DNA from: Escherichia coli
Lineage (GTDB): Bacteria > Pseudomonadota > Gammaproteobacteria > Enterobacterales > Enterobacteriaceae
DNA: 64,000 bases
Assembly (NCBI RefSeq): GCF_046105845.1
Contig: NZ_CP151004.1
Strand: one strand, 5' to 3'
Below, piece after piece: positions 43,418 to 45,306 of the stretch (positions are counted from its first letter, which is position 1; the number at the start of each line of letters is the position of its first letter). The position numbers were made by a program, and so were the translations under genes. The notes under the pieces were generated by a model, which was given only the letters and a program-made list of their open reading frames with translations, did no database searches and was not told the DNA's origin.

Positions 43418-44461
43418 TTACAGGTTGTTGAAGATGCGGTTTTCTTGTTCCAGCACACGAATAAACGTGGTGCGCTTGGTCAGCTCTTTCAGGCGTGAAG
43501 CCCCAACGTATGTACAAGCTGAACGCAGGCCGCCCAAAATATCACGTGCGGTATTTTCAACCGGGCCTCGCAGCGGCAGCTTAACGGTTTTACCTTCTGC
43601 TGCGCGATATTCCGCAACGCCGCCAACGTGACGTTTCATCGCAGACTCGGAGCTCATGCCGTAGAACAGCATAAATTTCTCGCCGTTCTCCTCAACGATG
43701 CGACCGCCGCTCTCTTCGTGGCCCGCCAGCATGCCGCCAAGCATGACGAAATCGGCACCGCCGCCAAAGGCTTTCGCGACATCGCCCGGCGTGGTGCAGC
43801 CACCGTCGCTGACGATCATTCCGCCCAGACCATGCGCAGCATCGGCACATTCGATCACCGCAGAAAGTTGCGGATAACCGACGCCTGTTTTGACGCGAGT
43901 TGTACAAACAGAACCTGGGCCAATGCCAACTTTAACGATATCAGCACCGGAGAGGATAAGCTCCTCACACATTTCACCAGTCACTACGTTGCCAGCACAA
44001 ATGGTTTTGGTCGGCCACGCTTCACGCGCTTTCGCAACGAACTGCACGAAGTGTTCGGAATAACCATTCGCCACGTCAATACAAACGAAATTTAATGCCG
44101 GGTTTAGGTCGAGAATCTGTTTAGTTTTTTCGAAATCCGCATCAGACGTGCCGGTAGAAACCATCACATGTTTCAGCACATCAGCGGAAGAATTGTTGAT
44201 AAACGCTTGCCACTCTTCAACAGAATAGTGTTTATGCACAGCAGTCAAAATATCAAAAGAAGCCAGCGCAGAGGCCATAGAAAATGTGCCTACGGTGTCC
44301 ATATTTGCGGCGATAATCGGCACGCCGGACCAGCTCTGACCTGAATGTTTGAAGGTGAATTGACGTTCCAGTTCAACATCGGAACGGCTTTTAAGAGTGG
44401 AGCGTTTAGGGCGGATGAGAACGTCTTTAAAACCTAACTTCAGATCTTCTTCAATACGCAT
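43418..44461 (-). CDS. guaC: GMP reductase
   Basis: 347-aa ORF recognised as GuaC ([29 protein letters not shown]...). Confidence 0.96.
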
Positions 44462-44685
44462 GTGCGGATTCCTGGGGTTAATGGCTATAAGGGTAAGAGC
44501 GCAACTCCAGTGACGTTATCATACGCACTAATCAATGCGGCGCAAGACTGCGAAATTGTCTTTTTTTACGCTACAATCCCATAAATTTACCTGGTAAATA
44601 GTGAGCGAACGTTTCATCAATTTCGCTTTCGTGCGCTCATTTTTAACGTTTTGATAATCATGATGAATTCCCGGGAATATAAATT

Positions 44686-45306
44686 ATGAGGTATATAGTT
44701 GCCTTAACGGGAGGCATTGGCAGTGGCAAGAGTACCGTTGCCAATGCGTTTGCTGATCTCGGAATTAACGTCATTGATGCCGATATTATTGCGCGTCAGG
44801 TGGTTGAACCAGGTGCACCTGCGCTACATGCCATTGCTGATCACTTTGGCGCTAACATGATTGCTGCTGATGGAACATTGCAGCGCCGGGCCTTGCGCGA
44901 GCGGATCTTCGCCAACCCGGAAGAGAAAAACTGGCTTAACGCCCTGCTGCATCCGCTGATTCAGCAAGAGACGCAACACCAGATCCAGCAAGCAACTTCC
45001 CCCTATGTACTGTGGGTTGTGCCATTGCTGGTAGAAAACTCACTGTATAAAAAAGCGAATCGAGTGCTGGTGGTGGATGTCAGCCCAGAAACGCAACTTA
45101 AGCGCACCATGCAGCGCGATGATGTAACTCGCGAGCATGTCGAACAAATCCTTGCTGCTCAGGCACCGCGCGAAGCTCGCCTTGCCGTGGCAGATGACGT
45201 CATTGATAATAACGGCGCACCGGATGCAATCGCATCGGATGTTGCCCGCCTGCACGCACACTATTTGCAGCTTGCGTCGCAGTTTGTCTCACAGGAAAAA
45301 CCGTAA
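44686..45306 (+). CDS. coaE: Dephospho-CoA kinase
   Basis: 206-aa ORF with P-loop GGIGSGKST. Confidence 0.95.

Follow-up and report, generated by a model that had tools for sequence, protein, structure and literature searches.

The 12-bp palindrome ATTCCCGGGAAT just upstream of coaE in Escherichia coli is probably not a functional unit in itself; on the balance of the evidence, it is the Shine-Dalgarno (SD) sequence of coaE abutting a mirror-image SD of the divergent small gene yacM. The right arm, GGGAAT on the plus strand, lies inside the coaE leader and would pair with the 3′ end of the 16S rRNA to start coaE translation. The left arm, which on the minus strand also reads GGGAAT, would most likely serve as the SD for translation of YacM. 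Two abutting and opposed SDs (TCC...GGA, or TCC followed directly by GGA) are inherently dyad-symmetric, and therefore palindromic.

Results

Position and statistics of the palindrome

Positions are those of the window, i.e. the whole stretch of 64,000 nucleotides analysed here, and K-12 coordinates were converted to it as 157905 minus the K-12 coordinate. The neighbourhood consists of hofB-hofC-guaC on the minus strand and coaE-zapD-yacG on the plus strand, and the features discussed below are the following:

43418-44461, minus strand: guaC coding sequence, with its main transcription start site (TSS) at 44511/44510, about 155 bp from the palindrome
44572-44577, plus strand: -10 hexamer TACAAT of the coaE promoter, inside the near-invariant block 44560-44594
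44583-44685, plus strand: coaE 5′ UTR, 103 nt, from the SMRT-Cappable-seq TSS
44617-44661, minus strand: yacM, 14-aa small protein MIIKTLKMSARKRN (RefSeq annotation, translation checked)
44667-44678, no strand: palindrome ATTCCCGGGAAT, at the centre of the 24 bp that separate the divergent start codons of yacM and coaE
44669-44672, minus strand: GGGA, putative yacM SD, 7 nt before the yacM ATG, -4.3 kcal/mol
44673-44676, plus strand: GGGA (AGGA in most relatives), SD core assigned to coaE, 9 nt before the ATG
44686-45306, plus strand: coaE coding sequence (dephospho-CoA kinase), ORF of 206 aa

As first described, the palindrome is perfect over its 12 bp (44667-44678) and upstream of coaE; with the coaE ATG at 44686, its final base stands at -8, with 7 nt in between. 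The resemblance to adjacent EcoRI and SmaI sites that had been pointed out is also borne out, both hexamers being present and overlapping (GAATTC at 44666-44671, CCCGGG at 44670-44675), and this coincidence is meaningless. ATTCCCGGGAAT is unremarkable as a palindrome, as perfect 12-bp palindromes occur in the window at chance frequency: 16 were counted, for 15.6 expected under an iid model and 17.7 ± 3.9 under a first-order Markov model.

Two copies with one mismatch are found elsewhere in the window, at 23535 and 58189. They are unrelated, the former being an arm of a terminator-like hairpin and the latter lying inside a 355-aa ORF, and a repeat family was rejected. The hairpin in question (23533-23566, ATGCCCGG-N12-CCGGGCAT) is intergenic and follows an A-run.

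Distribution in E. coli and origin of the site

The guaC-coaE spacer (239 bp, an intergenic length identical to that of K-12) is found in single copy in 5,424 of 5,426 complete E. coli genomes at ≥95% identity. A 40-nt blastn query around the palindrome was identical in 5,341 of the 5,426 and had 1-2 mismatches in 83, and a 36-nt megablast query centred on it matched at least 5,356, in a search that needs an exact 28-mer and where any substitution within 44663-44682 abolishes the match. In a variant carried by strain AB_24_S34, ATTCCCGAGAAT, the dyad is broken and the purine-rich SD run is kept. The matching genomes come from human, animal and environmental E. coli, and the same chromosomal place is occupied by the site in E. 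albertii. This near-identity (98.4% of genomes) is usual for any intergenic site in E. coli and is no proof of constraint. Of the 5,424 matching records, three carry a plasmid label, and the spacer is absent from 2 of the 5,426 genomes; faulty assembly or labelling may lie behind this, or else deletions close to an essential gene.

The original prediction had treated the site as natural, with flanks of native chromosome, and its presence in essentially all of the 5,426 genomes agrees with this. An engineered EcoRI-SmaI scar might have been imagined, as GAATTCCCGGG looks like common polylinkers, but 5,424 of the 5,426 genomes, as well as E. albertii, share the site with native flanks. The population data thus refute a cloning scar, wild isolates having the site without any vector flanks. 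A second foreign-looking resemblance is to the Bacillus subtilis Noc-binding site ATTTCCCGGGAAAT, with which the palindrome shares the 10-bp core TTCCCGGGAA. However, the Noc site is 14 bp long with ATTT arms, so that only this core matches; the arms of the palindrome are one base shorter, and it stands alone, as one copy where translation starts. Noc belongs to the Firmicutes; E. coli uses SlmA and is not known to have Noc. A Noc/ParB-type site was rejected on both the length of the consensus and the host, and the resemblance is a coincidence. Taken together, a polylinker scar or a Noc/ParB-type site has practically no chance of being the right explanation.

Promoter and leader of coaE

By SMRT-Cappable-seq, the operon b0103-b0102-b0101-b0100 starts at K-12 position 113322 on the reverse strand, which is 44583 in the window (Yan et al. 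2018, PMC6131387). This start lies six bases after TACAAT, a hexamer that also precedes the mapped coaE TSS of Klebsiella (Kim et al. 2012, PMC3415461). The palindrome thereby occupies +85 to +96 of the 103-nt coaE leader, which is antisense to the whole of yacM.

The block 44560-44594, CTTTTTTTACGCTACAATCC(C/T)ATAAATTTACCTGG, which contains the coaE promoter and the start of the leader, varies hardly at all among the Enterobacteriaceae loci examined and is far more conserved than the remaining spacer. The first nine bases of the coaE leader are invariant in 72 of 73 loci, even in those where the leader reaches 200-230 nt. Located about -50 to -85 of the guaC TSS, the block could be an UP element or a factor site for guaC besides being the coaE promoter. 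A weak TSS on the coaE strand at K-12 113199 (window 44706, 19 reads), 20 nt inside coaE, was assigned to yacF/zapD (Kim et al. 2012, PMC3415461); the palindrome would lie at about -30 to -40 of this start, for which no -35 can be recognised.

Other pairings are predicted in the leader. With ViennaRNA, 44588-44597 (UACCU.GUAA) pairs with 44684-44693 (UUAU.AGGUA), which spans the AUG, with a probability of about 0.6. Of its two sides, one never varies, and the other, at codon 2 (AGG or GGG), has lost the match in about 19 of 73 species with no compensating change. As a candidate for structural control of coaE translation, this pairing of the leader 5′ end with the start codon would be preferable to the palindrome, though it is unproven. 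From +3 of the coaE mRNA, Escherichia also has a 15-bp inverted repeat (44585-44599, ATTTACC-T-GGTAAAT), the right arm of which reads GGCGAAT in Citrobacter. Further down the leader, 44600-44641 is predicted to fold into a stable stem-loop (GUGAGCG...CGCUCAU), which is antisense to the 3′ half of yacM and occurs in both the MFE and the centroid structures.

The coaE ribosome-binding site

The coaE SD is GGGA at 44673-44676, in the right arm, as judged by its position, its pairing energy and its conservation. Its predicted duplex with the anti-SD, -4.3 kcal/mol, equals the median of the 49 long ORFs of the window, and this value is reached by 15% of random 20-mers. It falls at about +91 of the mapped leader, so that both its spacing and its location in the transcript are those of a ribosome-binding site. 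The comparison covered 74 orthologous species-level loci of Enterobacteriaceae, and an alignment of 36 species. In 72 of the 74 loci, an SD of -3 kcal/mol or better stands at the same place, and (A/G)GGA is likewise kept about 10 nt before the coaE ATG in 72 of 74; G44674 is invariant in the 36-species alignment. The overlap of the palindrome with the coaE ribosome-binding region, which had been noticed from the start, can thus be assigned to this GGGA and its -4.3 kcal/mol pairing.

yacM and the left arm

YacM was detected with a chromosomal SPA tag and immunoblotting, among candidates from a pool of small ORFs defined by an upstream sequence resembling a ribosome-binding site (VanOrsdel et al. 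2018, PMC6001520). Its ATG (44661, minus strand) and that of coaE (44686, plus strand) are 24 bp apart, and the minus-strand GGGA is the only SD-like element upstream of yacM. This GGGA is most likely the yacM SD, its usage being deduced from the sequence.

Four genera have an ORF resembling yacM at an identical offset, with ATG as its start codon in Escherichia and Kluyvera, TTG in Salmonella and either of the two in Citrobacter, and with an N-terminus of the form M-I/K-I-K/I-x-L-K (M-I-I-K-x-L-K). A minus-strand SD of -3 kcal/mol or better is present in 28 of the 29 loci with such an ORF, versus 22 of the 45 without, a correlation which is phylogenetically non-independent. The 28 loci include the C. 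freundii group, whose left arm has changed to ACTCC and whose minus-strand element is GGAG. The TTCCC left arm is also kept in Enterobacter and Leclercia, and because the homologous start codon there is ATT rather than ATG or TTG, conservation of the left arm is not fully explained by yacM.

The yacM-like ORFs, on the minus strand at about 27 nt from the coaE start, begin with TTG in the C. freundii group and Salmonella; depending on the genus, they are as short as 14 aa or exceed 30 aa. Some of those of Citrobacter and Kluyvera run through the conserved promoter block (...RQVNLWDCS). This read-through and this range of lengths suggest that only the N-terminal MIIKxLK, if anything, may be under constraint at the peptide level. 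Directly to the left of the palindrome, 44651-44668 (TTGATAATCATGATGAAT) is in part Fur-box-like (about 13/19, by eye) and, also by eye, has some likeness to a PurR box. Escherichia, Citrobacter and Salmonella all keep its TTGAT(A/T)ATCA, which overlaps codons 1-3 of yacM; either coding or a binding site may be the cause of this conservation.

No TSS on the yacM strand was found upstream of 44661 in the data of Kim et al. 2012 (PMC3415461) or in SMRT-Cappable-seq (PMC6131387), and a sigma-70 consensus scan of both strands gave no promoter upstream of yacM at the scan thresholds. The main guaC TSS maps to K-12 113394 (window 44511), with 2,366 reads (Kim et al. 2012, PMC3415461), or to K-12 113395 by SMRT-Cappable-seq (PMC6131387), and the main guaC transcript excludes yacM.

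Conservation of the dyad

A check of conservation across strains had been proposed, and its outcome is divided: the palindrome is near-invariant within E. coli, but the perfect dyad does not extend to the family, being found in only 2 of the 74 species-level loci, an E. coli-like genome and E. albertii. The sequence is ATTCCCAGGAAT in three other Escherichia lineages, AATTCCCAGGAT in Enterobacter and AACTCCAGGATC in the C. freundii group; Salmonella has AATTCCGGAAGC, plus a second GGAG nearer to the coaE ATG, and distant genera retain just (A/G)GGA. The centre reads CCCGGG in E. coli, E. albertii and C. amalonaticus, and CCCAGG in the other Escherichia and in Enterobacter. Position 44673 has toggled between G and A repeatedly among lineages, and it is a G there, in place of the A of most relatives, that makes the symmetry perfect in E. 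coli and E. albertii.

Discussion

Our results point to two opposed and ordinary SDs as the probable origin of the palindrome. The coaE element resembles a canonical Shine-Dalgarno site, being a purine-rich GGGA or AGGA found 7-9 nt before the start codon, in a mapped 5′ UTR, and conserved in orthologues. The difference here is that two such elements abut on opposite strands, CCC being directly followed by GGG, so that the DNA is palindromic. At 44673, either A or G would pair with the anti-SD (A-U or G.U), which would let the position toggle neutrally. On this reading, the 12-bp symmetry became perfect by accident in this lineage, at an SD position where wobble is tolerated, and we infer that the dyad as such is without function; taken singly, each SD is ordinary.

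One could also suppose that the right arm alone has a function, that of the coaE SD, with a left arm either neutral or otherwise constrained (e.g. by coaE initiation or standby) and a palindrome due to coincidence. The chance frequency of 12-bp palindromes fits this view, as do the deep conservation of the coaE SD, the loss of the left arm in distant genera, the TTCCC kept by Enterobacter without an ATG or TTG start for yacM, and the yacM TSS and promoter that neither the TSS datasets nor the sigma-70 scans revealed. However, the native locus does produce YacM, which must have some signal for initiation, the GGGA at 7-nt spacing is the sole SD-like element available upstream, and a minus-strand SD stands at the same spacing in 28 of the 29 ORF-bearing loci, including the GGAG of the C. 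freundii group. We therefore hold a right arm acting alone to be possible but unlikely. A bolder proposal goes the other way, and makes of the 12 bp a shared bidirectional translation-initiation module, with mutual antagonism of yacM and coaE through an RNA duplex, RNase III cleavage or transcriptional interference. As the start codons are 24 bp apart, the 5′ regions of the two genes overlap fully, in antisense; as in divergent overlapping or cis-antisense (excludon-like) pairs, the coaE leader is antisense to yacM, and any yacM mRNA would be antisense to the coaE ribosome-binding site. If true, such a module would link a small protein, encoded beside the purine-salvage gene guaC, to CoA synthesis. 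But what distinguishes this locus from those pairs is that no yacM TSS was found in the datasets mentioned above, that a p19 dsRNA dataset has no hotspot at yacM or at the palindrome, and that coverage antisense to coaE amounts to only about 2% of the sense coverage. We consider a shared antagonistic module improbable.

The remaining accounts give the dyad a role of its own, either as DNA or as RNA. A dimeric DNA-binding protein could use it as an operator for coaE, yacM or a promoter upstream in the guaC direction, and the perfect dyad symmetry within a divergent regulatory region, near-invariant in E. coli, invites this idea. Furthermore, SELEX with the RpoD holoenzyme recovers the guaC-coaE spacer, and a guaC-direction promoter, TTTATA-18-GATTAT, was predicted there (Shimada et al. 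2014, PMC3946193), the 18-bp spacer of which includes the palindrome. We rejected this promoter, which was predicted from motifs alone and would place its TSS within yacM, away from where guaC transcription was measured to begin. Against an operator stands the poor conservation of the dyad, perfect in only 2 of 74 loci and no more symmetric in the alignment than shuffled columns. The main guaC TSS is 155 bp away. The interval between TTCC and GGAA also changes, from 0 in Salmonella to N1 in Intestinirhabdus and in C. amalonaticus S646, and to N2 in E. coli; such a varying half-site spacing would not be tolerated by a dimeric protein and, together with the lack of conservation, disfavours a dimeric operator. 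Among the papers retrieved by a search for coaE, guaC and promoter together, no factor except the RpoD holoenzyme was found to bind the spacer, and an operator is in our view very improbable.

The original prediction was that the palindrome, as RNA, folds into a hairpin occluding the SD of coaE, and would thus lower or regulate its translation; neither folding energy, accessibility nor covariation supports it. As in RNA thermometers and translational operators, where hairpins sequester the SD, a self-complementary sequence covers the SD in a 5′ UTR, and a 4-bp stem (AUUC/GAAU, loop CCGG) is indeed predicted in the mRNA 44583-44745 with a pairing probability of 0.53-0.60, rising to 0.8-0.9 in the CCCAGG variant of the sister Escherichia species. 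Unlike in those systems, the palindrome yields at most 4 bp, its predicted stability is negligible, the SD is partly in the loop and no covariation is seen. The isolated 12-mer has an MFE of 0 kcal/mol; in a 46-nt context the energy is -5.5 kcal/mol (z = +0.23 versus shuffles), and larger contexts give z of about -0.8. G44673 and G44674 are in the loop, so that two of the four SD bases are unpaired, and opening the SD is predicted to cost 1.58 kcal/mol, to be set against the -4.3 gained with the anti-SD. When the left arm was destroyed in silico (TTC to AAG), the opening cost was 1.73 rather than lower, and the palindrome would thus add no net occlusion. Over the 36 species, the six palindromic pairs are formed in 62.4% of cells, versus 63.0% in column shuffles, with a covariation score of 0.118 versus 0.138; a register slid by -1 pairs better (69.6%), and the stem is absent outside Escherichia. 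A search of Rfam with 44380-44820 gave no match up to E = 10 on either strand, and a known RNA family was rejected. An SD-sequestering hairpin is, on these figures, hardly credible.

In conclusion, the abutment of the coaE SD with a putative SD of yacM matters little in itself, and what it does is to remove a candidate riboregulator. It provides a simple reason why a perfect palindrome can stand at a start codon, opposed Shine-Dalgarno sequences being mutually reverse-complementary. A useful by-product is a coherent map of the coaE leader, with its TSS at 44583, its conserved TACAAT promoter and a 103-nt UTR antisense to yacM. This antisense overlap of coaE and yacM is testable by those who study YacM or the expression of coaE.
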